From Patescibacteria group bacterium (GTDB lineage Bacteria; Patescibacteriota; UBA1384; XYA2-FULL-43-10): a stretch of 64,000 nt of DNA. The position numbers were made by a program, and so were the translations under genes. A model generated the notes under the pieces. It ran no database searches. It was not told the DNA's origin and worked only from the letters and a program-made list of their open reading frames with translations. The stretch is from contig JBAYVT010000002.1 of the NCBI GenBank assembly GCA_041674405.1, positions 23,158-87,157 on the forward strand. Direction: 5' to 3'. Below are positions 2,911 to 64,000 of the stretch, piece by piece. Each line of letters begins with the position of its first letter. Positions within the stretch are counted from its first letter, which is position 1.

Positions 2911-3573
2911 ATGCAGCCACGAGACGATAAATTCATCTACACCGACGGAATCGACTATTCCAAGACGTCTGCGGATTCCGTTTGGGGAACTGAAGAGAAA
3001 ATCACGTCGAAAATTATTGACGAAACTGTTACTTCAGGAAAATGGCTAAATCTTTGTGCTGGCGATGGACGGTTCAACAATCGCCTTCTTTCACTCGCCA
3101 ATCAGGTTATCGCAGCAGATATTGATGAAAGCGCATTAGAAAAATTGACAAGAATCACGCCAAAAGAGTTGGAAAAAAAACTTAAGACAAAGATACTGAA
3201 TGTGACCGAGAAATTTCCATTCAAAGATGCGGAGTTTGACGGAATATTCTGCTCCGGCACATTACACCTGTTCCCTGAGGATATTCTTCGCAAAATCTTC
3301 AATGAAATGGATCGGGTGCTAAAGCCAAATGGTAAAATAGTCATTGATTATGCAGCCGATATTCGAAGAGAATACCCGAACGGTTCGCTCTGGGTAATCG
3401 AAAACGAGCCCAATTATTCTCTCAAAGACGCCAAAGAATTGCTTTCAAAAATGTTTTCAAACTATTTAGTGGAAATGTTCGCTGACAAATCAGAGCCAGA
3501 AAGAGTGTCGTTTAACAACAAAGAATATCAATTTTCCTCCAATTTCATTTTAATCAGAGCACGGAAAAAATGA
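2911..3573 (+). CDS. Class I SAM-dependent methyltransferase (unknown substrate)
   Basis: Glycine-rich motif I (LNLCAGDGRF) and the VLKPNGKIVI motif of the Rossmann-fold MTase. Start chosen at ATG 2911 after an AAAGGTG SD, because the longer ORF would overlap eno. The stop overlaps the gpmI start (ATGA). Confidence 0.65.
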   Translation: MQPRDDKFIYTDGIDYSKTSADSVWGTEEKITSKIIDETVTSGKWLNLCAGDGRFNNRLLSLANQVIAADIDESALEKLTRITPKELEKKLKTKILNVTEKFPFKDAEFDGIFCSGTLHLFPEDILRKIFNEMDRVLKPNGKIVIDYAADIRREYPNGSLWVIENEPNYSLKDAKELLSKMFSNYLVEMFADKSEPERVSFNNKEYQFSSNFILIRARKK

Positions 3574-5057
3574 CCAAGCCAAAAGTCATTTTAATCATTT
3601 TGGATGGGTGGGGAATCGGCGAAAAGGATGAAGATAACGCCATTCACCTCGCTAAGACTCCTAATTTCGATAAACTCTGGGAGTCTTTTTCTCATGGCAA
3701 GATAAAGACCTCCGGCGTTGCTGTTGGTTTGCCGGCAGGGCAAATGGGCAATTCCGAAGTAGGCCACCTAACTATCGGCTCCGGTAGAGTAATTGATACT
3801 GATCTTGTCAAAATTTCTAAATCGGCAGAAAGAGGAGAGTTCTCCGCAAATCACGCATTTAAATCCGTATTTGACCATGTGAAAAAGTATGATAGCATCT
3901 TACACATTCAAGGTTTGATCGGTCCAGGTGGCGTTCATTCTCATTCCAACCATTTACTTGCAATCCTCAAGGCAGCAAAAGCTACGGGCATTGAAAAAAT
4001 TGCACTCCATGCATTTACCGATGGCCGCGACACAGACGCCAAAAGTGCGAACAAATATCTAAAAGAGTTAGAAAATGCTATTGAGGAAATCGGCGTTGGC
4101 TTTATAGCTACGGCAGTCGGCCGGTTTTATGCCATGGATCGCGATGATAATTGGGATCGTTTGAAAGTTGCCGAGGATGCGATCTTCGGCGGAGTTGCAA
4201 AAACGGTTGTCCGTAAAAAACCATCCGAAATTATGGAGGAATTATATGAATCAGGCATCACCGATGAACATATCGAACCGCACATTTTTCTAGATGAAAA
4301 AGGCAATGGTTATAAAATTGGAAAAAATGACGGTGTCATATTTATTAATTTCCGCGCTGATAGAGCCAGAATGTTTTCGAAAAAAATTCTCGAAAAACAG
4401 GAGGAACTCAATCTGTTTTTTGTCACTATGACTGACTACGGCAAAGATATTGATAGCGTCATCGCTTTCCCGCCAGATAACATTGAAGATACTTTGGCCG
4501 ATATTATTTCTGAAAATAATCTTACCCAATCTCACATTGCTGAGACCGAAAAATTTGCGCATGCAACCTATTTTCTAAACGGCGGCGTCGAAGATGAACA
4601 CAAAGACGAAAAGTTTATTCTGATCGAGAGCCGCAAAGATATAAAAACCCATGACCTTGCTCCCGGCATGCGAGCTTCTGAAATTGCTGATACAACCGTC
4701 GAAGAAATTCAGAAGGGGAGAGATTTTATCTTCGTAAACTTCGCCAATCCCGACATGGTCGGCCACACAGCGGTAAAAAAAGCGGTTATTGAAGCAATTG
4801 AGACAACCGACCGAGAGCTCGGAAAACTGGTAGAGACAGCACAAGAAAAAAAGTATGAGATCGTCATATCCGCCGATCATGGAAATGCCGAAGCTCCCGA
4901 TACTGCCCACACTGTGAATCCCGTCCCCTTGATCTATATTGGCGAAAAGTATTCTAAAGTATCTAATGGCGCCCTTTCCGACATTGCGCCAACAGTTCTT
5001 CAACTTCTCGAAATCAATAAGCCCTCGCGTATGACCGGTAAGGGCTTATTGAATTAA
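3570..5057 (+). CDS. gpmI: 2,3-bisphosphoglycerate-independent phosphoglycerate mutase
   Basis: MTKPKVILIILDGWGIG...NSEVGHLTIGSGR...FANPDMVGHT...SADHGNAE are iPGM hallmarks. Confidence 0.9.
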   Translation: MTKPKVILIILDGWGIGEKDEDNAIHLAKTPNFDKLWESFSHGKIKTSGVAVGLPAGQMGNSEVGHLTIGSGRVIDTDLVKISKSAERGEFSANHAFKSVFDHVKKYDSILHIQGLIGPGGVHSHSNHLLAILKAAKATGIEKIALHAFTDGRDTDAKSANKYLKELENAIEEIGVGFIATAVGRFYAMDRDDNWDRLKVAEDAIFGGVAKTVVRKKPSEIMEELYESGITDEHIEPHIFLDEKGNGYKIGKNDGVIFINFRADRARMFSKKILEKQEELNLFFVTMTDYGKDIDSVIAFPPDNIEDTLADIISENNLTQSHIAETEKFAHATYFLNGGVEDEHKDEKFILIESRKDIKTHDLAPGMRASEIADTTVEEIQKGRDFIFVNFANPDMVGHTAVKKAVIEAIETTDRELGKLVETAQEKKYEIVISADHGNAEAPDTAHTVNPVPLIYIGEKYSKVSNGALSDIAPTVLQLLEINKPSRMTGKGLLN

Positions 5058-8909: not shown

Positions 8910-9658
8910 TCTATAAATTCGTTTAGTAATTTAGTAAATTCTGCCGGCTTCTCCAAGAAACTAAAATGGCCGGCATTTTTGACAATTTCGAGACGTGAAT
9001 CTTTTATTTTTTTATGTATTACTCTTGCGTCTTCGATCGGCGTAGATTCATCATCTTCTCCCCAAACAACTAATGTCGGTGCATCAATTTTTGAAAGAAA
9101 AACGCTCAAGTCTTCGCTGATAAGATTTTTGTAGGTCTCCCTAAGTTCGGACGTTTCAAGATAGTCCTCAGAACCAATCCGTTTATAAATTAATTTTCTC
9201 AGCCCTTGCATAAACTTTGGTTTGAAAAATGGCTTGGCAATTTTTGCCATTCGATTATAATTGTCAGCCTTCGGTGATCTAATGCCTGCGCTATCGACTA
9301 GGACTAATCGAGATACCAGATCAGAATATTCAACGGAGAGTTTGATCGCAATCCGACCGCCGAATGAATGTCCGACGATAATCACTTTTTCACACCCAAG
9401 CTTGTCAATCAATCCAGCGACGACTTTTGCATAATCGGACACGGTAAAGACCGTACTTGGCTTCGGTGAAGATCCAAATCCCGGTAGATCAACAAGATAA
9501 ATTGAAAATAAATTCTGATCAATCGAGTCGGCAACATTTTTCCAAACCATGCCATCCGATCTCCAGCCATGCAAAAAAACAATGGCTTTTTTGCCAGTGC
9601 CAAATTTGTAATACGATACTAGCGTTCCACCAATATTAAGCTGCTCTTTCATAGCCAA
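8906..9658 (-). CDS. Alpha/beta-fold hydrolase
   Basis: HG oxyanion motif (VFLHGW) and nucleophile elbow GHSFGG. Confidence 0.7.
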   Translation of the reverse strand: MAMKEQLNIGGTLVSYYKFGTGKKAIVFLHGWRSDGMVWKNVADSIDQNLFSIYLVDLPGFGSSPKPSTVFTVSDYAKVVAGLIDKLGCEKVIIVGHSFGGRIAIKLSVEYSDLVSRLVLVDSAGIRSPKADNYNRMAKIAKPFFKPKFMQGLRKLIYKRIGSEDYLETSELRETYKNLISEDLSVFLSKIDAPTLVVWGEDDESTPIEDARVIHKKIKDSRLEIVKNAGHFSFLEKPAEFTKLLNEFIE

Positions 9659-9710
9659 AATTATAGCAAAAATTGGCCAAAATAGCCATTATTTATGGCA
9701 AAGAAGCAAA

Positions 9711-10130
9711 TCAAAGTTTCGTTAGATATTCGAGCACTTTTGGATGGATTGAGGTTGTAAAATATTTTGTAACTTCTGTCGGCTTTATCCACATAAGTTC
9801 TTTGAATGATTCCCCGGCTTGCTCCATCCCCTCATATGGCTCACAAAGATAATAGATCGAAAGAAATTCCTGTTTTTCCGGATAGGTTTTGGCAAAAACG
9901 ACTTCTTTAACGCGAACTTCAATTCCGGTTTTCTTTTTAACTTCTTTAATCAGACTGAATTCCAAATCTTCCTCATAACCCGGTCTGCCACCAGGAAAAC
10001 ACCATGAAAGCTTAGGAATGTTAGGGTCATTTTCACGCTTACCAATCAAAATCTTTTTTTGTTTCTCGTCGTAAACTATCGCCAACAAATTCACTACAAA
10101 TACTCCTTTTCCAAAAATATTGAAATCCAT
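9711..10130 (-). CDS. NUDIX hydrolase
   Basis: Nudix box GGRPGYEEDLEFSLIKEVKKKTG (GX5EX7REUXEEXGU). Confidence 0.75.
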   Translation of the reverse strand: MDFNIFGKGVFVVNLLAIVYDEKQKKILIGKRENDPNIPKLSWCFPGGRPGYEEDLEFSLIKEVKKKTGIEVRVKEVVFAKTYPEKQEFLSIYYLCEPYEGMEQAGESFKELMWIKPTEVTKYFTTSIHPKVLEYLTKL

Positions 10131-18556: not shown

Positions 18557-19570
18557 TTAATAAATCTCGACAACCATGCGTGGATTTTCAGCTACTTGCG
18601 CCTCAAGCTCCGATTTGGGCAACAACCCCCCTTGTGCTCCAATTATTCTGACAACGGAAGTAGAATTTACTATACCTGCTTTGAGTGCTTCAGATATCTT
18701 GTATTGATCGGAAAAATCCGCGTCTTTTGAATCTAAAAATTTCGCAACAAAAGCTGATGCAAAACTATCACCCGCTCCAGTCGCATCCACTCTTTCTCGA
18801 TTCATTGCTTCGATTCGATATGACCGAACCCCATCAAATGCGTAAGCGCCTTCTTTTCCATCGGTTACGATAATTATTCTTGGCCCAAGAGCATGAAGCG
18901 ATTTGGCAATTTCTTCAACCCGCGGCCGCACAGGATAATTGGAAAATTTTATTGCTTCTTCACGATTCAAAATCAATATCGAAACACATTTTAATAATGC
19001 CCTGTATTTCGAAACACCCTTTTCGATTTGCAAAGAACCAGGATTCCATGCAATTTTTGTTCCCTTCTCAGAAGCCATAGATATTAGATCCTTTTCAACT
19101 TCTTCGGTGTTTTCCCCCATCGGGCAAACAAAAAACCATTTAGTTTTTAAATTTTTTTTAGGCTTCAGCACTGAGTAATCTGAAACCCCGTGGCAAACAA
19201 AAATTGTTCTTTCGTCCCCAAGATTAAAAATGATTGAAAAATTTGTTTGGACATCATGTTTTTTAATGACCTGCGCTTCGTCTACACCCTCAATCCTAAG
19301 CCTTTCCAGTATTTTTTCAGAAGGAGAATCGTCTCCAATAGCAGTAATAATTGCAGTGTTATATCCAAGGCGATTGAACGAAACAGCAGTGTTGCATGCT
19401 GAACCGCCAATATCATAAAATGCATGTTCTAAAGAAATTTTTTCCCCCAGTTCAAAAGAAACAGATTTGCCCGAGGCATATCTCCGGCTGCTTTCAATAT
19501 CAAAAGTATGAGGCTTAACAAAAATATCCTCTGAAGCATCCCCAATTGTGACAATATCATACTTTGTCAT
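18557..19570 (-). CDS. PfkB/ribokinase-family carbohydrate kinase
   Basis: C-terminal DATGAGDSFASAFV (PfkB signature 2) and an N-terminal GG motif. Confidence 0.75.
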   Translation of the reverse strand: MTKYDIVTIGDASEDIFVKPHTFDIESSRRYASGKSVSFELGEKISLEHAFYDIGGSACNTAVSFNRLGYNTAIITAIGDDSPSEKILERLRIEGVDEAQVIKKHDVQTNFSIIFNLGDERTIFVCHGVSDYSVLKPKKNLKTKWFFVCPMGENTEEVEKDLISMASEKGTKIAWNPGSLQIEKGVSKYRALLKCVSILILNREEAIKFSNYPVRPRVEEIAKSLHALGPRIIIVTDGKEGAYAFDGVRSYRIEAMNRERVDATGAGDSFASAFVAKFLDSKDADFSDQYKISEALKAGIVNSTSVVRIIGAQGGLLPKSELEAQVAENPRMVVEIY

Positions 19571-20412
19571 ACTTTTGCTTTATTTCTTGAACCAAATAAT
19601 GTTATGTAATCACAGACTAATTTTTCAATATCAGCCTTCACTTCATTGAAGACATCTCTTGGATCATCGCTGATATCGATATTCTTTGAGGCGCTGGACA
19701 AGAACGCCTTGCGTATTTTGGTATCAATATTAAATTTGACCGCACCCGCTGCTATAGCAGCTTTTATGTCCTTCTGTGAAAGGCCCGATGCACCATGGAT
19801 CACAATTGGAACAGAACTAGCATGGGCGATTTTTGACAAAAGTGAAATATCTAACTTTTCACCCCTCGGTGCACCATGTTCATTGCCTACAGAAACTGCT
19901 AATGAAGTAATCCCGGTTCGATTAATAAAATCACTAGCTAAATCAGGATGGGTATATGAACTTTTGTTCGATAATTCTCCACCCTCTTCGCGCGAAATTA
20001 CACCCAGTTCCGCTTCCACATCTACATCAAATTCTTTCGCATACGAAACAACTTTTTTAGTTAAAGCGATATTTGATTCATATGGCAGTTTTGAAGCATC
20101 AATCATTACAGAATTATATCCGATATCGATGCACTCCTTGACTATTCCAAAATCACGCGCATGATCAAGGTGAATTGCGGCAAAAACATCTTGGCTGTCC
20201 AGTTCGCTTTTTATTATTCCAAATAGTTCAGGAAGCCCGGCATAATCGATTGCGCTTGGCGTAGTCTGAATAATTACTGGTGAATTCATTTTTTTTGCAG
20301 CAGCTACGACTACTTGTACTGTTTCGAGATTATATACATTAAAAGCACCTATGGCATAGCCATCGTTTTTGGCTCCTTGATATGCTTCTTTGAGATTTAA
20401 TAATGGCATCAA
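19567..20412 (-). CDS. fba: Class II fructose-bisphosphate aldolase
   Basis: PVIIQTTPSAIDYAG...HLDHARDFGIVKECIDIGYNSVMIDAS...HGASG. Confidence 0.85.
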   Translation of the reverse strand: MMPLLNLKEAYQGAKNDGYAIGAFNVYNLETVQVVVAAAKKMNSPVIIQTTPSAIDYAGLPELFGIIKSELDSQDVFAAIHLDHARDFGIVKECIDIGYNSVMIDASKLPYESNIALTKKVVSYAKEFDVDVEAELGVISREEGGELSNKSSYTHPDLASDFINRTGITSLAVSVGNEHGAPRGEKLDISLLSKIAHASSVPIVIHGASGLSQKDIKAAIAAGAVKFNIDTKIRKAFLSSASKNIDISDDPRDVFNEVKADIEKLVCDYITLFGSRNKAKV

Positions 20413-21566
20413 ATTACGCTTGTCTTGATATTGCTCACAAATTTATTGTTGTCAAGTGCAATCAAGCCCGGCATCTTTTCACCAGCAAGGTATGAAAGAG
20501 TTGCACCACCGCCTGTTGAAATGAAATTAATATCGCCACGAAGATTGTTTGCATCGATAAACCCAACCGTATCTCCGCCCGCAACAATGGTAGTCCCTTT
20601 GTTTTTGGAAATTGCCTCTGCAATTCTCCTTGTTCCAGTCTCATATCGTTCGTCTTCCGAGTGTCCCAGATTTCCGTTCCAGAACGTCGTAGCAGCAGTC
20701 GCTATTTCAGCCTCAAATTTAGCAATTGTTTCCGGGCCGATATCCATGATTTTGAAACGGCCACCATCAGAATTTTCCCTAGCCTGATCTACCGGTAAAA
20801 CAATTTTATCTTGATATCTCGATAGAATATCCTCACAGGTTTCAAACATTTCCCTTTCATATAATGAATCACTTACGTCTTGGCCAGACGCCGCAAGAAA
20901 AGTATTGGCAATAGCCCCTCCAATTAAAATTTTGTCCGCTTGTCCTGCCAGATTATTTATCAAAGCGGCTTTATCCTTGACTTTTGCTCCGCCCAAAACA
21001 ATCTTATAAGGCTTTTGTGGATTTTGTATCAAAATATCAAGAGTTGTTTTCTCAGACTCAATCAGAAATCCGGCATAGCTTGGAAGATAATTGGTAATCG
21101 CATCTACTGAAGCATGGGCCCTATGGCTTACCCCGAAAGCATCATTAACATAAATATCTGCGTAGCTTGCAAGTTCTTCCCCAAATCTTTCATTGTTGGC
21201 TTCTTCTTCTCTGTGCCATCGCAGATTGCCCAACATAAAAATATCACCAAAAGTCATCTCTGATATTTTTTTGGCGACCAAGGGGTGAATTATGTGATCT
21301 GTCGCATACACTTTCCGTTTTAATAGCTTTGCAAGCTCAGAGGCGAGCGGGATGGTAGAAAGTTCTGGAATAATTTCTCCAGCCGGCTTTCCCAGATGAG
21401 TGGCAATGATAATCTTAGTCCTTCTTTCAAGTAAATACTGGAGAGTTGAAAGAGATTCAACAATTCTATTGTTATCTAAAATCTTACCGTCTTTAATCGG
21501 TACATTATAATCGACGCGAACAAAAATCCGCTTTCCACTAACGTTTGCATCCCTAACGCTAACCAT
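20409..21566 (-). CDS. pgk: Phosphoglycerate kinase
   Basis: RVDYNVPIKDGKI...ATHLGKP...GGGA. Confidence 0.9.
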   Translation of the reverse strand: MVSVRDANVSGKRIFVRVDYNVPIKDGKILDNNRIVESLSTLQYLLERRTKIIIATHLGKPAGEIIPELSTIPLASELAKLLKRKVYATDHIIHPLVAKKISEMTFGDIFMLGNLRWHREEEANNERFGEELASYADIYVNDAFGVSHRAHASVDAITNYLPSYAGFLIESEKTTLDILIQNPQKPYKIVLGGAKVKDKAALINNLAGQADKILIGGAIANTFLAASGQDVSDSLYEREMFETCEDILSRYQDKIVLPVDQARENSDGGRFKIMDIGPETIAKFEAEIATAATTFWNGNLGHSEDERYETGTRRIAEAISKNKGTTIVAGGDTVGFIDANNLRGDINFISTGGGATLSYLAGEKMPGLIALDNNKFVSNIKTSVI

Positions 21567-21727: not shown

Positions 21728-22660
21728 TTGCCTTACAGGCTTAAAGATCATCATTTAAACCATATATTTAGCATAATAAATAAGTATTATGAAATTTATG
21801 GCGTTTCCAAAAAAAGCAAAAAATTTTCTAGAATTGAAATTGCATCAGATTTAATCTGGATAAACGGCAGATCACAAATGCCACCCAAAAAAGTCTTGTT
21901 TGAAGACCAACAGATAATTTCGGAAGATCTCAATAAAAAGATTGCTTTCGTTGGCATGCCCCTGTGTGATGTCTCGGCCATCCATCATTTAATTTACAAA
22001 TTAAGAGATTCTGGATTAGTACCGGATCGAGATGATCTGTTGCTGATTGCATCTGAATGTAAGCCAGACGATGCTTGTTTTTGTGAATTTTTCGGTACTG
22101 ATAAGCGATCAGGTTTTGATATTTATATTCAAAAAAATAGCAGTGGGTACGATGCATTCTCAGGGACAGCTGCTGGAGAAAAAATTTTAAAAAAATTAGC
22201 GCTAATGCCTGATCACAAATTAAACCTGCGCCCAGTTACCCATAAGTCCCTAAACAAATTGTCCAAGGAAGAAATAACAAAACTGATTGAAAAACGCGGC
22301 CAATTTGATGACTTATGGAACAAGATTGCAAATAACTGCTTTGGTTGTGGCGCCTGCACAGCTGTTTGCCCGCTTTGTTATTGTTTTAGACAAGAAGAGA
22401 AAAATAATTTAGATGGCAGCTGCAAATCTTGCATAAATTGGGATTCTTGCTTTGCAAAAGAATTTTCCGAAGTACAAAATAGAGCTGATTTACGGCCTCA
22501 AAATGTTGACCGGCTATATAATTGGTATCATCACAAATTTGTCCGCTCCCCTTATCTTTGCGTCGGATGTGGACGATGTATCAAGGCTTGCCCTGCAAAT
22601 TTAAATATTAAAAATATTCTTTTATCAATTGAAAAGTTAGGCGAAAAAAGTGATGAATAG
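21728..22660 (+). CDS. Hydrogenase iron-sulfur subunit (HydB-like; two 4Fe-4S ferredoxin motifs plus additional Cys clusters)
   Basis: CFGCGACTAVCP and CVGCGRCIKACP. The start is uncertain: the listed TTG could be replaced by an in-frame ATG at 21878. Confidence 0.6.
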   Translation: MPYRLKDHHLNHIFSIINKYYEIYGVSKKSKKFSRIEIASDLIWINGRSQMPPKKVLFEDQQIISEDLNKKIAFVGMPLCDVSAIHHLIYKLRDSGLVPDRDDLLLIASECKPDDACFCEFFGTDKRSGFDIYIQKNSSGYDAFSGTAAGEKILKKLALMPDHKLNLRPVTHKSLNKLSKEEITKLIEKRGQFDDLWNKIANNCFGCGACTAVCPLCYCFRQEEKNNLDGSCKSCINWDSCFAKEFSEVQNRADLRPQNVDRLYNWYHHKFVRSPYLCVGCGRCIKACPANLNIKNILLSIEKLGEKSDE

Positions 22661-23450
22661 CCCTTTTTCATATCGTGAATATAAAATTACTAACAAAACT
22701 GAAGTTGCTCCAGATACATTTCTGTTTCGACTTAGAGGAAAATTGAAATTTGATCCAGGGCAATTTGTCCAGGTAAAATTTCCCCATATCGGAGAAGTGA
22801 CTCTGGTTCCCTGCTCTAAAAAAGATGAAAAAACATATTTTGAACTTTGCGTTCGCAGAGCCGGAAATACGACCGAAAAAATATCTGAAAAGGTACCGGG
22901 TGATTCGATGTTTGTTCGAGGGCCATATGGGCACGGATGGCCAATCGGCAAAACATTGGAAAAAGATATTTTGCTGATTTCCGGCGGCATCGGAATCATC
23001 CCGCTTATGCCGCTTATGGATGAACTGGTGAAATATCGAGGTAATTTTGGGAAAATCTACTTTCTCGCCGGATTTAAAACTCCGCACCACGTCATGTTTG
23101 AACAGGATCTTTTGCGTTACAAAAAGAAAATAAGCTATTTCAAGGTTGCGGTCGAAAAAACCGACAGAGATTGGTGGGGTGAAAATTGTATGATCACCGA
23201 CTTGATTAAAAACACAAATCTGAGTCCAAATATCAATGTATTTCTATGTGGTCCGGAAATTATGTTTCGCCCCTGCGTCGATGTTCTATTACAAAAAAAA
23301 ATTAATCCGAAAAATATTTACGTTTCTTTCGAGCGAAGAATGGAATGCGGGATCGGTTTTTGCCAACATTGTACTATAGGCAAGTATAAAGTTTGTGAGG
23401 ATGGCCCCATATTTACCTGGAGCAAAATAGCACCGGAGTTAGAAAAATGA
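22650..23450 (+). CDS. Hydrogenase FAD/NAD(P)-binding subunit with a C-terminal 2Fe-2S site (HydG/AsrB/PyrK-like)
   Basis: Ferredoxin-reductase-type fold, and C-terminal CGIGFCQHC...C. Confidence 0.7.
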   Translation: MMNSPFSYREYKITNKTEVAPDTFLFRLRGKLKFDPGQFVQVKFPHIGEVTLVPCSKKDEKTYFELCVRRAGNTTEKISEKVPGDSMFVRGPYGHGWPIGKTLEKDILLISGGIGIIPLMPLMDELVKYRGNFGKIYFLAGFKTPHHVMFEQDLLRYKKKISYFKVAVEKTDRDWWGENCMITDLIKNTNLSPNINVFLCGPEIMFRPCVDVLLQKKINPKNIYVSFERRMECGIGFCQHCTIGKYKVCEDGPIFTWSKIAPELEK

Positions 23451-24178
23451 ATGCAATATTCCCCAAAAAAACACTAGGAATTTTTTCTCTCACTTGTTGC
23501 GAAGGTTGCCAATTTTCGCTGTTAAAGGACTTTGTTGGTTTTGAAAAAATCACAAGATTTTATGAAATAAAAAGTTTTCGCCTCGGGCAAGAAGAAAATG
23601 ACGAATGCTTTTTTGATGTTTCGCTTGTTGAGGGAACACCCGAGTCAACTCGGGAACTTGAGCATTTGAAAAAGATAAGAAAAGTATCGAAAGCAGTTGT
23701 TTCAATTGGCGCTTGTGCACATTTAGGCGGTATTCAATCAGAGCGAAATCGCTTACCTAAAAAATACATCGGAAAAGAAAAAGTTAAAAAAATTAGTGAC
23801 ATAATAAAAGTAGATTTGGTTATTCCTGGCTGCCCGATTTCCCACAAGGAGGCAGTGGCCGCCCTTCTTGACACATATTGGGGCAAAAAATTTCGGCCGA
23901 AGGATTATGCCGTATGTTTCGAATGTAGAAAAAATGAAAATGAATGCTTGATAAAAAATGGCAGACCCTGCCTGGGCCCGATCACCCGGGGAGGATGTGA
24001 TAGTGTTTGTATAAATGGTGGAGAATTGTGTCTTGGGTGCCGCGGTGCGTTAGATCAAACGAATTTTAATAAAATTAAAGAAATACTAAACCCGATGATC
24101 GGAGAAGACAAAACGAATAATCTCCTTACCATATATGGAGACCTGGAACAAGAATGGAAAGATCAGGACAGACAATGA
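23447..24178 (+). CDS. [NiFe] hydrogenase small subunit (HydD-like)
   Basis: CCEGCQ proximal-cluster motif, GACAHLGG, PGCPIS. Confidence 0.75.
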   Translation: MNAIFPKKTLGIFSLTCCEGCQFSLLKDFVGFEKITRFYEIKSFRLGQEENDECFFDVSLVEGTPESTRELEHLKKIRKVSKAVVSIGACAHLGGIQSERNRLPKKYIGKEKVKKISDIIKVDLVIPGCPISHKEAVAALLDTYWGKKFRPKDYAVCFECRKNENECLIKNGRPCLGPITRGGCDSVCINGGELCLGCRGALDQTNFNKIKEILNPMIGEDKTNNLLTIYGDLEQEWKDQDRQ

Positions 24179-25092
24179 AATTTGAAGAATTAAAGAAAAT
24201 ACTAGCAAGTAAAATAGAATTTAAAGATTTTGACGACCCTGATGTCGTAAAAATTAATGCCGGTATAGTAAGTAATCATAAATATAAAATTAAAAGCCAC
24301 AATTCGAGTTTTTTTGTAAAAGAGATCAAAGACAACGAGGCAAATATTCTCAAAATATTAGATATGATTGATCTAGATTTCTATCCCAAAATCTTATATC
24401 TTGATCTACTCGATAAAAATATCCTCGTCTCCGAATTTATTGAGGGTGACGCACTGCAATCTTGGGAGATTCAGGACAATCTTCTGCTAGGTTTTACCCA
24501 AATGCAAAATTTGATGAATAATATTAGTTTCCTCAAAGAAAAAGAAATATTTGGTATTTCGAATTTTAGCGAAACTGATGGTGGTTTTTTCCGAAATCAA
24601 ATAACAGAAAATTTTTTATATGGATTGGAAACACTTGATGACTTGTCAAAAACTAATTTGCCAATCGTAAAAAAACACTTCGAGTTGGTATCTTTTTTGA
24701 AGAAAGATAAGCAAAAAATATTTGATGATTTTTCAAACATGCCGTTTGCGAGGCAACATCACGATTTCAAGCAGGACAACATCATTGGAAATCCACAAAA
24801 ATTGGTTGATTGGGGATCTTCTTATGGATATGGGCCATTTTTGTTTGATCTTGCTCCTTTTTTGTTAAACAATAAAAACCAATTAGAACTATACAAATCA
24901 AAATCAGATGTCTGCAAGGGCTTTACAGACCGCCAGATAAATCGCTGGCTTTATGTCGCCGCTGTAGCAAGATATATGGAAGATTTGAGATATAGAATTA
25001 GCGATAATGGATGGAATTCGTCTAAAGAAAAATGCGAACGCTTTCTTGAGAGCGAGTATGATAATTATCAGTCATTGCTTGATAAAATATAG
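24175..25092 (+). CDS. APH/choline-kinase-fold phosphotransferase (kinase-like)
   Basis: Lys in FFVKEIKD, Glu in EANILKIL, catalytic loop HHDFKQDN (HxDxxxxN), and DWG (DFG equivalent). Its ATG overlaps the hydD TGA (ATGA). An AGGAGA SD for hydA follows. Confidence 0.55.
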   Translation: MKFEELKKILASKIEFKDFDDPDVVKINAGIVSNHKYKIKSHNSSFFVKEIKDNEANILKILDMIDLDFYPKILYLDLLDKNILVSEFIEGDALQSWEIQDNLLLGFTQMQNLMNNISFLKEKEIFGISNFSETDGGFFRNQITENFLYGLETLDDLSKTNLPIVKKHFELVSFLKKDKQKIFDDFSNMPFARQHHDFKQDNIIGNPQKLVDWGSSYGYGPFLFDLAPFLLNNKNQLELYKSKSDVCKGFTDRQINRWLYVAAVARYMEDLRYRISDNGWNSSKEKCERFLESEYDNYQSLLDKI

Positions 25093-25114: not shown

Positions 25115-26362
25115 ATGAGTTCATCAGTTCCCAAAATTGAAGGACACGCTACTTTTTACGCCCATCTTCGTGCCGGAAAAGTTGACAAGGCCAGAATTAT
25201 TGGCCTTGATGGAGATCGGTTTGTTGAAAAAATATTATTCGGGCGCAGCTATATGGAAGTACCAGTAATTACCTCTCGCATCTGTGGTATATGCCCCGTA
25301 ATTCACAATGTTACCTCAACCAAAGCTGTGGAAAATGCTCTCGATATCAAGGTTTCCGAACAAGTAGAAACACTGCGGAAACTAATGCTCTGTGGCCAGA
25401 TGGTTCAGAGCCACTCGCTTCATCTATACCTTCTGGTTCTTCCCGATTTCATGGGAATGTCTTCCTCTTTCGAGCTTCAAAAAAAGCACCCGGATATTTT
25501 TGCCGATGCAGTTGCCCTAAAATCATATGCCGATAGTATTATTGAGATAATCGGAGGCAGGGCAGTTCATCCGGTTTCGAACGTACCTGGCGGTTTCAAA
25601 AAATTTCCGGAAATTTCTGAATTACGGAAATTACTGGAAGAAAGTAAAAAGATGACCGATCTTGGGATTAAAACATTAAAGCTTTTTCAGTCATTTAATT
25701 ATCCTGAAATTTCCCGCAAGATAATTTACTCGGCGTTGTCTGACCTGAATGAATATGCTTTCTATGGCGGAGAAATCAAGACCACGAGCGGTGAGAATTT
25801 TAAAGCAAAAGATTATAAAAAATATATTTACGAAGAAATTCTGCCATATAATCGTGCGAAATTTGGAACGCTCAAGGGCAAAGAAATGATGGTTGGCGCA
25901 ATTGCCCGGATTAATCTCAACAAGAAACAATTGGAAAAAGAAATTGGAAGTTTGAAGGAACTTGGTGTAGGTGAAGAGCTGTCCGATAATCCATTCGGTA
26001 ACATAATTGCCCAAGCAATTGAAAACTATTATTTTATCGTAAAATCAGAAGCGATAATTGAAAAATTAATTAAAGAGGGTATTTCCGAAGAGTCAATAGT
26101 TGAACCAAAAAAAATTGATGAAGGAGTTGCTGCTTGCGAAGCACCGCGTGGAACGCTGTTTCACTACTACAAATTTGACAAAGAAGGTATGCTTGAAAAG
26201 TGTGATATTGTTACGCCAACCGTACAAAATCTGCCAGCATTGGAATATGACATGAAAAAACTCGGCCCCTTTCTCAAGGACTTGGACGAAACAGAGAGAA
26301 CAGAAATGATTGAGATGCTTATTCGTTCATATGACCCATGCATCACTTGCGCCACACATTAA
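25115..26362 (+). CDS. [NiFe] hydrogenase large subunit (group-3b-like)
   Basis: N-terminal RICGICPVIH and C-terminal DPCITCATH immediately followed by the stop codon. Confidence 0.85.
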   Translation: MSSSVPKIEGHATFYAHLRAGKVDKARIIGLDGDRFVEKILFGRSYMEVPVITSRICGICPVIHNVTSTKAVENALDIKVSEQVETLRKLMLCGQMVQSHSLHLYLLVLPDFMGMSSSFELQKKHPDIFADAVALKSYADSIIEIIGGRAVHPVSNVPGGFKKFPEISELRKLLEESKKMTDLGIKTLKLFQSFNYPEISRKIIYSALSDLNEYAFYGGEIKTTSGENFKAKDYKKYIYEEILPYNRAKFGTLKGKEMMVGAIARINLNKKQLEKEIGSLKELGVGEELSDNPFGNIIAQAIENYYFIVKSEAIIEKLIKEGISEESIVEPKKIDEGVAACEAPRGTLFHYYKFDKEGMLEKCDIVTPTVQNLPALEYDMKKLGPFLKDLDETERTEMIEMLIRSYDPCITCATH

Positions 26363-26468
26363 TACAGAAATGAATAGCCCCAAAGGGGACCGTTCGGGTC
26401 GAATCTGAACCAATAGCAAATATACGAATTATTAGTAAATTAACCATCAGTATATTAGCAATCGATTT

Positions 26469-27350
26469 ATGAATGCAATCATTGAAATCAAAAAACTGAC
26501 AAAATATTATGGCAAAACCCTCGGGATTAAAAGCCTTGATTTGGATGTAATTGAAGGAGAAATATTTGGTTTTATCGGGCCAAATGGCGCTGGCAAATCT
26601 ACAACGATCAGGCTTTTGCTAGATTTAATTCGGCCAACAGCGGGAAGTGCAAAAATTTTTGGCAAAGATATCCACCGCCATAGTGTGGAGCTTAAACAAG
26701 ATATCGGCTATTTGCCAGGAGAAATATTTTTGCCGGAAAATCTCACCGGTAAAAGCTGTATTAATTATTTTAAATCCTTCAAGGAAACAATTGATGACAG
26801 ATATCTTAAAGATTTAAAATCTCGTTTTGAATTTGATGATAAGAAAAAGATTTCCCAGTATTCCAAAGGCAATAAGCAAAAATTAGCAATAATTTTAGCC
26901 CTGATGCACAAGCCGAAACTCCTAATTCTAGACGAACCGACAAGCGGGCTCGACCCCTTAAACCAGCAAGAATTTTACAAGGTTATCACCGAAACAAAGG
27001 AGTGGAGAACAACAACTTTTTTCTCAACTCATATTTTGGATGAGGCTGAATTTCTTTGCGATCGAGTCGGAATCATTAAGGATGGCCGTCTGCTCCAGAT
27101 TGAAGACATCGACAAATTTAAAGAAAAAAATATTCGTGAAATAAATCTGGAAACCACCGCAGATATTCCTCTTTCGGCCTTGAAAATTGATGGCGTCGAA
27201 AAGACGGAAAAAACTGATCATGGCTATCGCCTAATCACCAAGGGCCATAACGGCGAATTGATAAAAATCATTTCGAAATTTGCAATCGATGACATTAAAA
27301 TATCCGAACCATCGCTTGAAGAAATATTTATGCATTTTTACGAAAAATAA
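26469..27350 (+). CDS. ABC transporter ATP-binding protein
   Basis: Walker A GPNGAGKST, signature YSKGNKQKL, Walker B LLILDEPTSGLD. Confidence 0.85.
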   Translation: MNAIIEIKKLTKYYGKTLGIKSLDLDVIEGEIFGFIGPNGAGKSTTIRLLLDLIRPTAGSAKIFGKDIHRHSVELKQDIGYLPGEIFLPENLTGKSCINYFKSFKETIDDRYLKDLKSRFEFDDKKKISQYSKGNKQKLAIILALMHKPKLLILDEPTSGLDPLNQQEFYKVITETKEWRTTTFFSTHILDEAEFLCDRVGIIKDGRLLQIEDIDKFKEKNIREINLETTADIPLSALKIDGVEKTEKTDHGYRLITKGHNGELIKIISKFAIDDIKISEPSLEEIFMHFYEK

Positions 27351-27447
27351 CTAATAGCTAGAAACTAAAATGTAAAATCTAAGGATGGGTCGTTAAATAA
27401 TTGTTTTGATAAAATATGGTTTTAAGTTTTAACATTTAAGTTATTAC

Positions 27448-28251
27448 ATGGATAATATGATCGCAATAATGTACAGAAAATTTATTGACCAAGCGATTTC
27501 ACTTCTATATTATTTTGGCGGCCTACTCGCCTACTCCTGGATGATGATCGCCATGTTTCCAACAATGAAGACGGCAGATCTGGCCGGTATTTACAACCAA
27601 TTTCCCAAAGAATTTCTAAAGTTTTTTGGCGCCAACGGGATTGAAAGCATGGGAACGGTAGAAGGTTTTTTATCTATAGAATTTCTTTCGCTGTTTTTTA
27701 TACTAATTATCGCTTTTTATATCGGCTCGTCCGCCGGATCAACCATAGCTGGCGCAATCGAAAAAAGGACAATGGATTTTCAGCTATCACAGCCAATTTC
27801 TCGGGCTAAGCTTTTACTCAGTGAGACAATCGTCGGGCTCCTCAACACTGCACTTTTGGTATTTGCCACTTCAGGCAGTATCTATATTCTTGCAAAGGCA
27901 TACGATGTTTCAATGAGCACTCGGGGAATCTTCGTTTTTGCTTTTGTGGCGATAATATTCTTATGGGCATTTTACGGGTTAGCAGTTTTGATTTCTTCCA
28001 TCTTGCGCAGCAAAATCACCGTTGCCTCGATAACGGTATCTATTATCATGGGCTTGTATATATTGAATGCTCTTTCGAAAATCGTGGATAAACTGGCAAA
28101 GATCGAAAAATACACATTGTTTAATATGTATAATCCACAAAAACTTTTGACCGATCACATCATAAACTGGCACCAGATCGAATTCTTGCTTTTAGTTCTT
28201 GTGGTTGGAATAATTAGTTCAATATTGATATTTAATAATAAAGATATCTAG
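27448..28251 (+). CDS. ABC-2-type permease
   Basis: Six TM helices, downstream of the ATPase. Confidence 0.6.
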   Translation: MDNMIAIMYRKFIDQAISLLYYFGGLLAYSWMMIAMFPTMKTADLAGIYNQFPKEFLKFFGANGIESMGTVEGFLSIEFLSLFFILIIAFYIGSSAGSTIAGAIEKRTMDFQLSQPISRAKLLLSETIVGLLNTALLVFATSGSIYILAKAYDVSMSTRGIFVFAFVAIIFLWAFYGLAVLISSILRSKITVASITVSIIMGLYILNALSKIVDKLAKIEKYTLFNMYNPQKLLTDHIINWHQIEFLLLVLVVGIISSILIFNNKDI

Positions 28252-28305: not shown

Positions 28306-29094
28306 TTATGGTTTCCTAGAAACGAAAACTAATCCGATCGGGTAGGTTTTTGGAAACTTAGGTTGTTTTTCAAGAAGTTCGGCGGTTACTTCCGGCTCTA
28401 ACATTTTTTCAACCACAAACCCCGCTTTAATCAAAGAATTAAAATAATCAGAAATCGGCCGTTGATAATGTTCAATCTCGTAAACCTTTTGGTATTTTTG
28501 AGCAACATCAACATCCCGAATCTTACTGTTGTCCATTGTAAATTTCGAGTATCCCCTACTAAAATACCCTTTCGATCCCCGAATGGTCCTCTCTTTCCCG
28601 TCGGCTTGTCCCCGCAAATAGGTAACGAGATCCCATACAGGGTGAGTGATTGCAAACAAAAACCGTCCTCCGTTTTTCAAGGTTTTAAAAGCCTGGGACG
28701 TAACAAAGTCAATCTCTTCGAGTTCGTTCAGCAAGAAACCTGAAAAAATTACATCTACGGAATTCGGTTTTATTTTCCAGGGTTTGGTAACATCTTGTTC
28801 AATAAATTCGGCTATATTGGTCTGAACTCTTTTTCTCGCAAAATCCAAATTATGGGGAGATATGTCGATTAGAATTAGTCGATCTGGGTTCTGACCCTCA
28901 ATTTGCGAACTGAAATAACCGTTGCCGCACCCCAAATCAACCACCGTCTTCCCGTTTAACGTTCCAATCTCAGATAATAATTGCGGGTTGAGCACATATT
29001 GTTTGTAGACCCCGCCATTATCTCCGGTCGCTTCGTTCCAAAAACTCGCAAATTCAGGATCTAAATATGCAGAAATCGCATTATTCTGTGTCAT
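28306..29094 (-). CDS. Class I SAM-dependent methyltransferase
   Basis: VVDLGCGNGYFS motif I, DVIFSGF. Confidence 0.7.
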   Translation of the reverse strand: MTQNNAISAYLDPEFASFWNEATGDNGGVYKQYVLNPQLLSEIGTLNGKTVVDLGCGNGYFSSQIEGQNPDRLILIDISPHNLDFARKRVQTNIAEFIEQDVTKPWKIKPNSVDVIFSGFLLNELEEIDFVTSQAFKTLKNGGRFLFAITHPVWDLVTYLRGQADGKERTIRGSKGYFSRGYSKFTMDNSKIRDVDVAQKYQKVYEIEHYQRPISDYFNSLIKAGFVVEKMLEPEVTAELLEKQPKFPKTYPIGLVFVSRKP

Positions 29095-29314
29095 GGTGGT
29101 CCATTTCTTTATGGGTTTTTATAAATTTTAAGTTCTCTTTTGCTTCGGTTTCGGAGATTTTTGAAAGTGCCCTGCCGTCGTGCATCAAAATCCAATCCCC
29201 GACTTTAGGATTTTGAACTAGAGAAATATCGGCCTTGTATTCTTCACCCTCATAATCAAAAAGGGCAATTGCCCCTTTGATTTCTTTGATTTTTCCAGGT
29301 ATTGCTAAACACAT
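29081..29314 (-). CDS. hypC: [NiFe] hydrogenase maturation factor HypC/HupF
   Basis: MCLAIPGKIKEI... with the conserved N-terminal Met-Cys, and VGDWILMHDGRAL. The start is trimmed to the MC motif (ATG at 29312-29314). Confidence 0.75.
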   Translation of the reverse strand: MCLAIPGKIKEIKGAIALFDYEGEEYKADISLVQNPKVGDWILMHDGRALSKISETEAKENLKFIKTHKEMDHHDTE

Positions 29315-29370: not shown

Positions 29371-30369
29371 TTATTTTGAATTTGTTACCCGCTCCACCAT
29401 ATCCACAAGCCTCTCTGAGTATCCCCACTCGTTGTCATACCAGGCAATTATTTTAACAAGATCTCCACCGATCACGCATGTTAATGGTAGGTCGACTATC
29501 GATGAATATGGATTTTGTTTAAGGTCGCTTGATACCAGCGGCTCTTCTGAAACCTGAATTATTCCTTTGTGGCTGCCATCTGCAGCCTTTTTAAGTGCTT
29601 CATTAATATCATCGACTGAAACTTTTTTGGAAAGAACCGCAACGATATCAGAGAGCGAAACCACCGGGGATGGAACACGGATCGATAAGCCGTCAAATTT
29701 ATTCTTAAGCTTGGGTATTGTCAAAGTCGCTGCTATTGCCGCACCTGTCGTAGTCGGAACAATATTTTGGGCTGCAGCGCGAGCCCGGCGCAGGTCTTTA
29801 TGCGGACCGTCAACCAAATTTTGGTCAGCCGTATAGGAATGAATCGTTGTCATCATTGATTTTTCAACGCCAAATTCATCCTCAATCACCTTCATCACCG
29901 GCGCGATACAATTGGTTGTACAGGAAGCATTTGAGACAATACTCTCGTCATCGTATTTATCAGCATTAGCGCCGATCACGAAAGTCGGAACCGAATCATC
30001 CTTTGCCGGCGCGGACAAAACAACTTTTTTGGCGCCGGCTTCCAAATGGGCTTTTGCCAAATCATTAGTCAAAAATATACCGGTCGACTCGATGACAACA
30101 TCGATATCAAGTACTTTCCATGGCAAAGCTCCCGGATTTTTCTCCGAAAGGTAATGGATTTTCTTGTTATTGACGATAATCTCATTATCAGAAAAGCCAA
30201 CTTCCCGGTCGTAAATACCGTAGCATGTGTCGTATTTTAAAAGATGGGCTTGGGTTTCTGCCGGGCACAGGTCATTTAAAGCGACAAGCTCAACATTCGG
30301 CCGGTCCAAAATTATCTTCGCCGCCGCCCGGCCGATCCGTCCAAAGCCATTAATTGCTACTCGCAGCAT
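29371..30369 (-). CDS. gap: Glyceraldehyde-3-phosphate dehydrogenase
   Basis: INGFGRIGR and the ASCTTNC active site. The start is trimmed to MLRVAINGFG with SD GAAGGAGGTGG. Confidence 0.9.
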   Translation of the reverse strand: MLRVAINGFGRIGRAAAKIILDRPNVELVALNDLCPAETQAHLLKYDTCYGIYDREVGFSDNEIIVNNKKIHYLSEKNPGALPWKVLDIDVVIESTGIFLTNDLAKAHLEAGAKKVVLSAPAKDDSVPTFVIGANADKYDDESIVSNASCTTNCIAPVMKVIEDEFGVEKSMMTTIHSYTADQNLVDGPHKDLRRARAAAQNIVPTTTGAAIAATLTIPKLKNKFDGLSIRVPSPVVSLSDIVAVLSKKVSVDDINEALKKAADGSHKGIIQVSEEPLVSSDLKQNPYSSIVDLPLTCVIGGDLVKIIAWYDNEWGYSERLVDMVERVTNSK

Positions 30370-31132
30370 CCACCTCCTTCGGGATAACAACGTCACCTTT
30401 AAAACTTTTATTTGCTGCCCAAATGCGGCAGATTTCGACAAATACACTTGCTCTAAGGCTGGCACTGCCAACCAAGACTCCATCAATCAACGGCGATTTA
30501 GCAAAATTTAATATTTTTTCATGGTCTATGCTGCCACCATACAAAATTGGGCTTTCTCGGAATATCACTTCGCGAAGTTTGGCCACTGCTTTTTCTGCAT
30601 GTTCGACCGGTGCGGCATTGTGATTGCCAATTGCCCATACGGGCTCGTAAGCCACAACAATATCCTTGTATTTGTTTTTTGGAACATGAGTCAAGGCCTC
30701 TTCAAGCTGGTCGGCAGCATCGGACAGGGGGGCGCTTTTCGTTTTCTCGCCAACACAAATGATTGGAGACAATCCGTGTTTTAAGGCTGCTAACACTTTT
30801 TCATTAACATCAAAATCTGTCTCGCCAAAATGAGCCCGGCGTTCCGAATGTCCGACAATTACGTATTTGCAAACATCGCGAATCATAATCGGCGAGATTT
30901 CACCGGTGTAAGGACCCTCATCTTCATAAAACATATTTTGGGCCCCTAGGTTAACCTTTCCGTCTCTTTTCAAAATTTCTGATAGTTCAGAAAGCCAGAT
31001 CACTGGCGGGCAGACCACGACCTCGACTCCATCAAGACTGGCAACAGAGTTTCTGATTGAGGTCGCTAAAATATACGCATCAGATGCCCGCGTATACATC
31101 TTCCAGTTCGCAACAACCATCGGCCGTCTCAT
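30350..31132 (-). CDS. tpiA: Triosephosphate isomerase
   Basis: VVANWKMY...VIVGHSERR...GGS. Confidence 0.9.
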   Translation of the reverse strand: MRRPMVVANWKMYTRASDAYILATSIRNSVASLDGVEVVVCPPVIWLSELSEILKRDGKVNLGAQNMFYEDEGPYTGEISPIMIRDVCKYVIVGHSERRAHFGETDFDVNEKVLAALKHGLSPIICVGEKTKSAPLSDAADQLEEALTHVPKNKYKDIVVAYEPVWAIGNHNAAPVEHAEKAVAKLREVIFRESPILYGGSIDHEKILNFAKSPLIDGVLVGSASLRASVFVEICRIWAANKSFKGDVVIPKEVDAASSN

Positions 31133-63006: not shown

Positions 63007-64000
63007 TTATCCCATTAATTTTGTTAAATCAGTACCGATCATCTCCCCTGGCATTGCAATCTCCATGACAGATAAAATTGTGGAGGCAACATCGGCAAGA
63101 ATCCCCGTCGGTCCTTCAGAAGAATATTTTATCAAATCTTCATGCTTGAATAAAATATCGTTACTAAATAAAAGTGGCTTTTTCAAAAAATCCATTGAAA
63201 CAAAGGGTACGGGATTGGTCGTATGTTCTTTGTTTACCTCACCCGTGATCGGGTCAATCATATTTTCACAATTTCCATGATCAGCCGTAAGAAATACAAA
63301 ATATCCATTTTCCGATGCTTTCAAAAGCATTTTTTTAAGACAAGAGTCAATCGCCTCGCATGCTTTTACCGATGCCCCAAGCATTCCTGTGTGCCCAACC
63401 ATGTCCCCGTTTGCAAAATTCACAAGTATGAAGTCTTCCTTTGCTGACAGGGCAGAAATAACTTTTTCGCTCACGCCAGAAGCCGACATTTCAGGTTTTT
63501 TATCATATGTTGGCACTTTTGGAGATGGCACGACTATATCATTCTCGTTTTTGTGCGGCTTTTCTACCCCACCATTGAAAAAATAAGTCACATGAGGATA
63601 CTTTTCAGTCTCAGCAGTATGAAATTGCTTAAGCCCAGACTCGGAAATAATGTCAGAAAAGGTATTTTTTAGATTTGTAGGCTTAAAAATTACCGGTAGG
63701 CCATACCTTGCATCATATTCTGTCATTGTAGCGATATTAAGCGGCGTAATTTTGTTTCGGCGAAAACCATTAAATTCAAAACTTGAGAAGGCCTCGAGGA
63801 GTTGGCGAACGCGATCTACGCGAAAATTGTAGAAAATTATCGTGTCACCGTGCTCGATCAAACCAGTTTTATCTATTACGCAAGGCTCAATAAACTCGTC
63901 AAATATCTGATTATCATAACTATCCTTGATCGCCTCAAGAACCGAAGAAAATTCTTTCCCCTTCCCTTCGGTCATCAGGCGATAAGCTTTTTCGGTACGT
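63007..64000 (-). CDS. Second, divergent 2,3-BPG-independent phosphoglycerate mutase paralogue (partial; N-terminus beyond the window)
   Basis: HTAETEKYPHVTYFFNGGVE...FANGDMVGHTG...TADHGNCE. Open frame to the window edge. Confidence 0.75.
   Translation of the reverse strand, partial: RTEKAYRLMTEGKGKEFSSVLEAIKDSYDNQIFDEFIEPCVIDKTGLIEHGDTIIFYNFRVDRVRQLLEAFSSFEFNGFRRNKITPLNIATMTEYDARYGLPVIFKPTNLKNTFSDIISESGLKQFHTAETEKYPHVTYFFNGGVEKPHKNENDIVVPSPKVPTYDKKPEMSASGVSEKVISALSAKEDFILVNFANGDMVGHTGMLGASVKACEAIDSCLKKMLLKASENGYFVFLTADHGNCENMIDPITGEVNKEHTTNPVPFVSMDFLKKPLLFSNDILFKHEDLIKYSSEGPTGILADVASTILSVMEIAMPGEMIGTDLTKLMG

Follow-up and report, generated by a model that had tools for sequence, protein, structure and literature searches.

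How does an [NiFe]-hydrogenase mature when its large subunit has no C-terminal tail for a protease to remove? Most [NiFe]-hydrogenases carry a cleavable C-terminal extension on this subunit, and the question is raised by a 64,000-nucleotide stretch of DNA (hereafter the window) from contig JBAYVT010000002.1 of a Patescibacteria group bacterium, which carries a four-subunit hydrogenase operon and, 3 kb away, a hypC gene. The original prediction, made from the letters alone, held that the large subunit (alpha) of this hydrogenase stops at the last histidine of its metal-binding motif. Our analysis shows that the tail-less end is real and clade-wide, an ancient trait of a known enzyme family. The overall picture, to which we give a probability of roughly 0.8, is that of a tail-less, cytosolic, four-subunit hydrogenase of group 3b that would be served by HypC and would need no endopeptidase step.

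The large subunit stops at its last metal-ligand histidine

25115-26362, plus strand: alpha, the large catalytic subunit, 415 aa, made at mature length (PF00374, E=2.6e-39)
25277-25306, plus strand: N-terminal metal-ligand motif RICGICPVIH, with Cys57 and Cys60 (17-sequence clade alignment)
26333-26362, plus strand: C-terminal motif DPCITCATH, with Cys409, Cys412 and His415, then TAA directly (direct reading)
26363-26468, no strand: intergenic spacer of 106 nt, without tail-coding potential (three-frame translation)

Alpha possesses both metal-ligand motifs, of the RxCGxCxxxH and DPCxxCxxH types. The second, DPCITCATH, occupies 26333-26359 and is followed by the stop codon at 26360-26362, the plus-strand codons reading GAC CCA TGC ATC ACT TGC GCC ACA CAT TAA. 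Tail coding was sought in all three frames of the 106-nt spacer and none was found: the alpha frame is stopped, and the remaining two frames give short chance peptides only. In relatives, the spacer 3' of alpha is only ~30-40 nt long.

The same end characterizes the homologues. We collected the best 120 matches from 5.8 billion proteins, which are 58-100% identical to alpha and, where named by source, come from Patescibacteria or Berkelbacteria. All of the C-terminally complete ones (119/119) finish exactly at DPC[IL]TCA[TS]H, and the N-terminal RxCGxCxxxH is present in every one of them. In the 17-sequence clade alignment R55, C57, G58, C60, H64, D407, P408, C409, C412 and H415 are invariant, and so are, in the KIEGH segment near the N-terminus, E9, G10 and H11. 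Moreover, the identical alpha protein is found on contigs of an ENA assembly (137.9 kb), of two Logan runs and of a JGI metagenome, that is in at least four independent assemblies, and this recurrence excludes an error of reading or assembly. In the 39 tail-less loci taken from public genomes, the codon that ends translation after the histidine is TAA in 27, TAG in 6 and TGA in 6. The use of all three codons indicates that the position of the stop has been maintained, rather than one codon inherited. The two structural claims, an end at the DPCxxCxxH histidine and the lack of any tail, are therefore confirmed, and the sequencing error with a tail in another frame, which had been put forward as the event that would undo them, is excluded.

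The enzyme belongs to group 3b

21728-22660, plus strand: beta, HydB/ShyB-like Fe-S protein (PF17179 Fer4_22, E=3e-20; PDB 9nez_B, E=3e-22; NCBIfam ShyB/HydB top)
22650-23450, plus strand: gamma, FAD/NAD(P)-binding, 2Fe-2S, HydG-like (PF00970, PF00175 and PF10418, DHODB-type Fe-S; PDB 9nez_C, E=3.5e-47)
23447-24178, plus strand: delta, the small subunit, 243 aa (PF01058, Oxidored_q6; delta of P. furiosus sulfhydrogenase I, PfSHI, E=5e-35; NCBIfam ShyD/HydD top)

The matches of the subunits in PDB and NCBIfam identify the enzyme as a predicted group 3b [NiFe]-hydrogenase. The best PDB matches of alpha are PfSHI alpha (E=2.6e-67) and T. kodakarensis HyhL (E=3e-62). When alpha is taken alone, the margin of these two 3b proteins (231 and 214 bits) over the 3c protein MvhA (207 bits) is small, FrhA (3a) and HoxH (3d) scoring 141 and 127 bits. 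For this reason it is the beta, gamma and delta set that decides the assignment. Indeed, PfSHI provides the best solved-structure match for each of the four subunits, and in NCBIfam the Shy/Hyd sulfhydrogenase families rank first for alpha, beta and delta and are among the best-scoring matches for gamma, all of them below the equivalog cut-offs. Placement in 3c, 3a or 3d was considered and rejected from the identities of beta, gamma and delta in the same two databases. Group 3b, as originally proposed, is borne out, and it does not figure among the groups published in 2020 as tail-less, namely 2b, 2d, 4c, 4e and 4g (PMC7294309), so that the second way of undoing the original prediction, placement in a normally tail-less group, fails as well.

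Within group 3b, the hydrogenases called hyd1 of the Candidate Phyla Radiation (CPR) have been described as having co-located beta and gamma genes, a full-length small subunit of ~250 aa and a hypC-like family in their context (PMC7304191), so that the association of such a family with CPR hydrogenases is already published. The window locus shows these traits by description: CPR origin, beta and gamma co-located, a delta of 243 aa and hypC nearby. A 3b hydrogenase of Berkelbacteria and Moranbacteria has also been described, and a Berkelbacteria enzyme of this kind modelled (PMC10811913). Neither Jaffe et al. 2020 (PMC7304191) nor PMC10811913 mentions the C-terminus, a protease or maturation, and maturation is undiscussed in Valentin-Alvarado 2024. 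We found no literature statement on CPR hyp genes or on tail-less 3b enzymes.

Tail-less large subunits are common in group 3b

In the archetype PfSHI, the FrxA protease must cut the four residues -VVRL from alpha, and the enzyme is inactive without it (PMC2865534). The PDB chains of PfSHI and HyhL, 428 aa, extend 4 residues beyond the aligned histidine. We surveyed the group at the level of clusters of 50% identity; of the 150 best-matching representatives, 131 have an intact C-terminal motif. Tail-less subunits account for 41 of these 131, and most others have just 4-12 tail residues. In a neighbour-joining tree (a rough distance tree, not a maximum-likelihood one) the CPR clade falls inside one large clade of ~38 representatives, all tail-less, which share RICGxCP..H as a signature and, in most cases, DPCxTC..H. 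Tailed sequences occupy a part of the tree apart from this clade, among them the Thermococcales SHI type with 4-5 tail residues, and a few more tail-less cases are scattered elsewhere. Named members of the tail-less clusters include Thermoleophilia and Archaeoglobi. The tree and the homologues place the loss of the tail as ancestral to a large 3b subclade, and not as an acquisition of this genome. The view that tail-lessness is atypical for group 3b thus holds against the characterized archetypes, since PfSHI needs FrxA and 3b is unlisted, but not in sequence space, where 119/119 close homologues and 41/131 cluster representatives lack the tail.

The survey also contained two kinds of enlarged subunit. 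Four 3b-like large subunits (P0222, P0242, P0253 and P0263) have 177-202 extra residues past DPCISC..H, and in three of them (P0222, P0253 and P0263) the extension includes a GxGN...DDGxG motif typical of maturation endopeptidases; these three look like large subunits fused to their own protease. Four others (P0129, P0139, P0156 and P0244) are tail-less, 583-592 aa long, and have a ~170-aa N-terminal extension ahead of the hydrogenase domain, which may represent a fusion with another subunit.

Tail-less loci lack a nearby maturation endopeptidase gene

Is the absence of the tail accompanied by that of the protease gene? We scanned loci from one genome per GTDB species (80 loci), searching the open reading frames (ORFs) with profiles grown from E. 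coli Hyp proteins and HycI.

Tail-less loci (Patescibacteria, Altiarchaeota, others), n=39: endopeptidase gene within 10 kb in 0
Tailed loci (tails mostly 24-27 residues), n=40: endopeptidase gene within 10 kb in 30

The difference is highly significant (Fisher p=2e-13), and flank lengths are alike in the two sets. It persists when only loci flanked by 2 kb or more on either side are retained, an endopeptidase gene being found in 0/30 tail-less vs 18/25 tailed loci. The protease genes of the tailed loci usually follow alpha directly. This contrast supports the inference, already drawn in the original prediction, that the tail-less enzyme needs no protease.

One contig calls for a caveat on this association. 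On the JGI contig of P0545, a 130-aa gene at 9373-9765 with a weak match to PF01750 (HycI) adjoins the gene of a 431-aa hyd2-like CPR large subunit, which may or may not be tailed.

HypC is the only Hyp protein encoded near the hydrogenase

29081-29314, minus strand: hypC (HypC/HybG/HupF chaperone), 77 aa, last gene of the gap-tpi transcription unit (PF01455, E=2.6e-21)

The identity of this gene is clear: its product scores 76 bits against PF01455 (cut-off 28.5) and 70.9 bits against TIGR00074 (cut-off 48), starts with MCLAIPG (Met-Cys), has the conserved histidine in WILMHDG, and shares 40% identity with E. coli HypC over a stretch of 68 residues. Its best 120 homologues (clusters) are 66-85% identical, which makes HypC at least as conserved as alpha in this clade.

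No other maturation gene was found around it. The Pfam matches of the genes called in the window and in its flanks (~5 kb on the left, 7 kb on the right) contain no hypA, hypB, hypD, hypE, hypF or endopeptidase; a tblastn search of the window with HycI and the Hyp set of E. coli as queries returned no hyp gene beyond hypC and no endopeptidase; and a six-frame hmmsearch with profiles that included CPR Hyp members and 32 endopeptidases found HypC alone (E=2.6e-36), all others having E>0.03. That the 64 kb contain no hyp gene but hypC, and that no endopeptidase gene accompanies it, is thus borne out by three approaches, for both kinds of gene also across the ~12 kb of flanks.

The surroundings of hypC were compared in 19 hyd1-type loci of other species and in a 72%-identical relative (L092). 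The gene stands directly downstream of gap in 16/19 loci, the other 3 being short or incomplete contigs. The description of a lone hypC wedged between a methyltransferase gene and gap is therefore correct as to position, but this arrangement is not an oddity of the genome: the gap-hypC pair is the rule and only the methyltransferase gene is a recent neighbour.

Other CPR lineages encode a larger Hyp set

In another Patescibacteria metagenome-assembled genome (L034), the large subunit is 41% identical to the window alpha and also ends with DPCITCATH, and its locus includes hypC, hypD, hypE (its product ending PRIC), a short hypF whose 401-aa product has the C-terminal domain only, and a gene for a HypA-like protein of 90 aa without zinc-finger cysteines. 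A second locus (L039) has hypE and a short hypF as in L034. This gene set indicates that a canonical Hyp machinery exists in CPR bacteria and coexists with tail-less enzymes. A HypD search seeded from L034 gave, among its best 120 matches, CPR-type proteins of 54-100% identity, named Patescibacteria, Parcubacteria, Kuenenbacteria, Terrybacteria or Pacebacteria. In two contexts hypD stands in the order hypC-hypD(-hypE-hypF_C) beside hyd2-like hydrogenases.

Two of these proteins are themselves reduced. The CPR HypF of 368-438 aa, seen in L034 (7711-8916, minus strand), in L039 (1686-3002, minus strand) and on the P0545 JGI contig, has only the C-terminal Kae1-like domain (TIGR00143 positions 382-739) and lacks the acylphosphatase, zinc-finger and YrdC-like parts. 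The small HypA-like protein (mini-HypA, 79-93 aa) is encoded directly 3' of the tail-less large subunit in six Patescibacteria loci:

L034, 11389-11661: mini-HypA
L035, 11279-11518: mini-HypA
L027, 4891-5148: mini-HypA
L031, 1544-1825: mini-HypA
L033, 2974-3231: mini-HypA
L037, 2009-2275: mini-HypA

The four that were read start with MHD or VHD. In NCBIfam, the L034 protein matches only the HypA N-terminal nickel domain; it is devoid of any cysteine and hence of a zinc finger.

A model for maturation, and its alternatives

How could the window enzyme be assembled? Alpha is made at mature length: its translation stops right after the histidine that, in other hydrogenases, becomes the C-terminus only through proteolysis. 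We propose that its maturation therefore requires no endopeptidase step. HypC, charged on HypD, would pass Fe(CN)2CO to apo-alpha, and the most likely donor is the conserved HypC whose gene closes the gap-tpi operon, 3 kb from the hydrogenase. Nickel would be inserted next, the C-terminal histidine closing the site without cleavage, and alpha would then dock to delta. In the finished complex, gamma is expected from synteny to oxidise the NAD(P)H of the GAPDH step, the electrons being vented as H2 to sustain fermentation. We infer the Hyp route from the known function of these proteins and by analogy with the tail-less RH, CooH and Ech enzymes: where studied, naturally tail-less hydrogenases use the Hyp machinery (PMC7294309). 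Under this model hypD, hypE and hypF are probably encoded elsewhere in this genome and work with HypC, and the enzyme is presumably active.

Several points weigh against this proposal. To our knowledge, no CPR hydrogenase has been characterized biochemically. None of hypD, hypE, hypF, hypA and hypB was found in the ~76 kb around alpha, nor within 10 kb on either side in the hyd1-type loci. In this clade hypC is apart from hypD, to which it is adjacent in other CPR lineages. Among the best 120 CPR HypD matches, a list already full at 54% identity or more that may thus miss this lineage, none is on a contig with the length of a known hyd1 contig. Finally, when the tail was deleted genetically in E. 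coli Hyd-2 and in the R. eutropha SH, the enzyme was cofactor-free (PMC7294309); tail-less maturation is thus not automatically functional.

These observations lead to the most serious alternative, in which the hyd1 CPR bacteria would have kept HypC alone, without HypD, HypE and HypF, the cofactor coming for example from a host or partner cell or an unrecognised enzyme, or HypC acting as a mere folding chaperone. The absence of hypD, hypE and hypF is noticeable here because, in the CPR lineages that have them, these genes adjoin hypC and the hydrogenase; hypC is the sole hyp gene not only in the window and its flanks but also in the hyd1-type loci of other species, and CPR bacteria depend on hosts and have strongly reduced genomes (PMC7304191). 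However, the view covered ~76 kb of this genome and ~21 kb per relative, and HypC has no known function in the absence of HypD. Moreover, there is a precedent in E. coli HybG, a HypC paralogue whose gene goes with a hydrogenase and not with hypD, and the strong purifying selection on HypC and on the metal ligands favours a working canonical pathway. We therefore regard this alternative as unlikely. Its lineage-wide form, in which all hyd1 bacteria would keep a ligand-complete 3b enzyme and HypC, have lost HypD, HypE and HypF, and receive Fe(CN)2CO by an unrecognised route, for instance from the host cell, seems to us slightly less likely still.

A second alternative would make the protein a hydrogenase-like relic that has lost its NiFe binding, in which case the tail and the maturation genes would be irrelevant. 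Group 4-related CPR proteins (Ehr-like) that have lost their Cys ligands do exist (PMC7304191), and no maturation set is visible locally. Against this, C57, C60, C409, C412 and H415, as well as E9, G10 and H11, are invariant, the beta, gamma and delta partners are kept in 16-19 of the 19 hyd1-type loci, and HypC is kept and highly conserved, so that we consider a relic very improbable. As for an artefact of sequencing or assembly, or a tail lost recently to a nonsense or frameshift mutation, a shifted frame past the histidine does give INTEMNSPKGDRSGRI before a stop, superficially like a short tail, but the frame translations, the identical protein in at least four assemblies, the common end of 119/119 homologues down to 58% identity, the 30-40 nt that precede the next gene in relatives and the use of TAA, TAG and TGA across species lead us to reject it as having practically no chance of being right. 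Maturation of a naturally tail-less enzyme through HypC, with the remaining Hyp proteins encoded elsewhere, is the reading that we retain.

Gene neighbourhood

18557-21566, minus strand: PfkB-family kinase, class II fructose-bisphosphate aldolase (FBA) and phosphoglycerate kinase (PGK) (Pfam; conserved left flank)
24154-25092, plus strand: 312-aa ORF between delta and alpha, distantly APH/kinase-like (weak PF01636, E=3e-4; no NCBIfam match)
26469-28251, plus strand: ABC transporter, DrrA-like ATPase and ABC-2 permease (PF00005, PF12679)
28306-29094, minus strand: SAM-dependent methyltransferase beside hypC (PF13847, PF08241)
29371-31132, minus strand: GAPDH and triose-phosphate isomerase (TIM), upstream of hypC on the same strand (PF00044/PF02800, PF00121)

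The PfkB-FBA-PGK genes and the hydrogenase operon run divergently. The arrangement recurs in the hyd1-type loci, where the gene order can be written as PfkB-FBA-PGK leftward, beta-gamma-delta-alpha and the ABC transporter rightward, then hypC-GAPDH-TIM-CofD-UvrC leftward. On the left flank, PGK is kept in 15/19 loci, FBA in 14/19 and PfkB in 11/19; directly 3' of alpha, the ABC ATPase is found in 11/19 and the permease in 10/19; GAPDH and TIM are found in 16/19. The presence of glycolysis genes on both sides of the operon suggests that H2 metabolism is coupled to glycolytic redox balance.

Two genes of the window depart from this order. Both the 312-aa ORF and the methyltransferase gene are missing from L092 and from all 19 hyd1-type loci, which marks them as recent insertions; the first 25 nt of the 312-aa ORF lie within the 3' end of delta. 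A promoter and terminator scan gave promoter-like sites at the level of shuffle expectation. Further glycolysis genes in the window encode enolase (1608-2894) and iPGM (3570-5057), and the contig has two iPGM-family genes, the second at 63007-64000 and running on into L007 (6437-8020).

Significance and comparison with known systems

The finding is real, typical of the lineage and mildly new: it extends a known phenomenon modestly, and it leaves the view of how these enzymes work unchanged. What it adds is that group 3b, missing from the usual lists, holds a large, naturally tail-less subclade that includes the CPR enzymes. Natural tail-less large subunits bear on the question of why most [NiFe]-hydrogenases carry a cleavable extension at all, and this subclade, standing beside archetypes that need a four-residue tail and a protease, offers a close pair for probing the role of the tail. 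It also suggests that the CPR and related 3b enzymes could be expressed heterologously without a matching protease. For CPR biology, the question raised is where, or whether, the reduced genomes of the hyd1 type encode the remaining Hyp machinery.

As regards its chaperone, the window locus resembles E. coli, whose HybG and HypC are likewise small proteins with an N-terminal Cys and a conserved His. Like hybG, the window hypC is encoded near the hydrogenase rather than with hypD. Unlike the E. coli genes, it ends a glycolytic (tpi-gap) transcription unit, and its partner HypD was not located in the ~76 kb.

The tail-less enzymes known from other groups, that is the H2 sensors of groups 2b and 2d (e.g. 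R. eutropha HoxC), CooH (4c), Ech (4e) and 4g, have an ORF whose last residue is the His or Arg in the motif DPCxxCxx[H/R] and no endopeptidase step, as proposed for the window alpha. However, all of them belong to hydrogenase groups other than the 3b of the window enzyme.

Within group 3b, PfSHI and HyhL (PF0891-0894; PDB 9nez and 9e15; 5yxy) share with the window locus the same four subunits, the order beta-gamma-delta-alpha and the same L1/L2 Cys motifs, although identity to PfSHI is only ~35%. The difference lies in the end of the protein: PfSHI alpha has four extra residues (-VVRL), cut by FrxA, whereas the window alpha has neither these residues nor a nearby protease gene. The closest system is the CPR hyd1 and Berkelbacteria 3b hydrogenase, which forms the same clade as the window enzyme, its homologues being named Patescibacteria or Berkelbacteria. 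Beyond this published type, the window locus has acquired the APH-like ORF between delta and alpha and the methyltransferase gene beside hypC.

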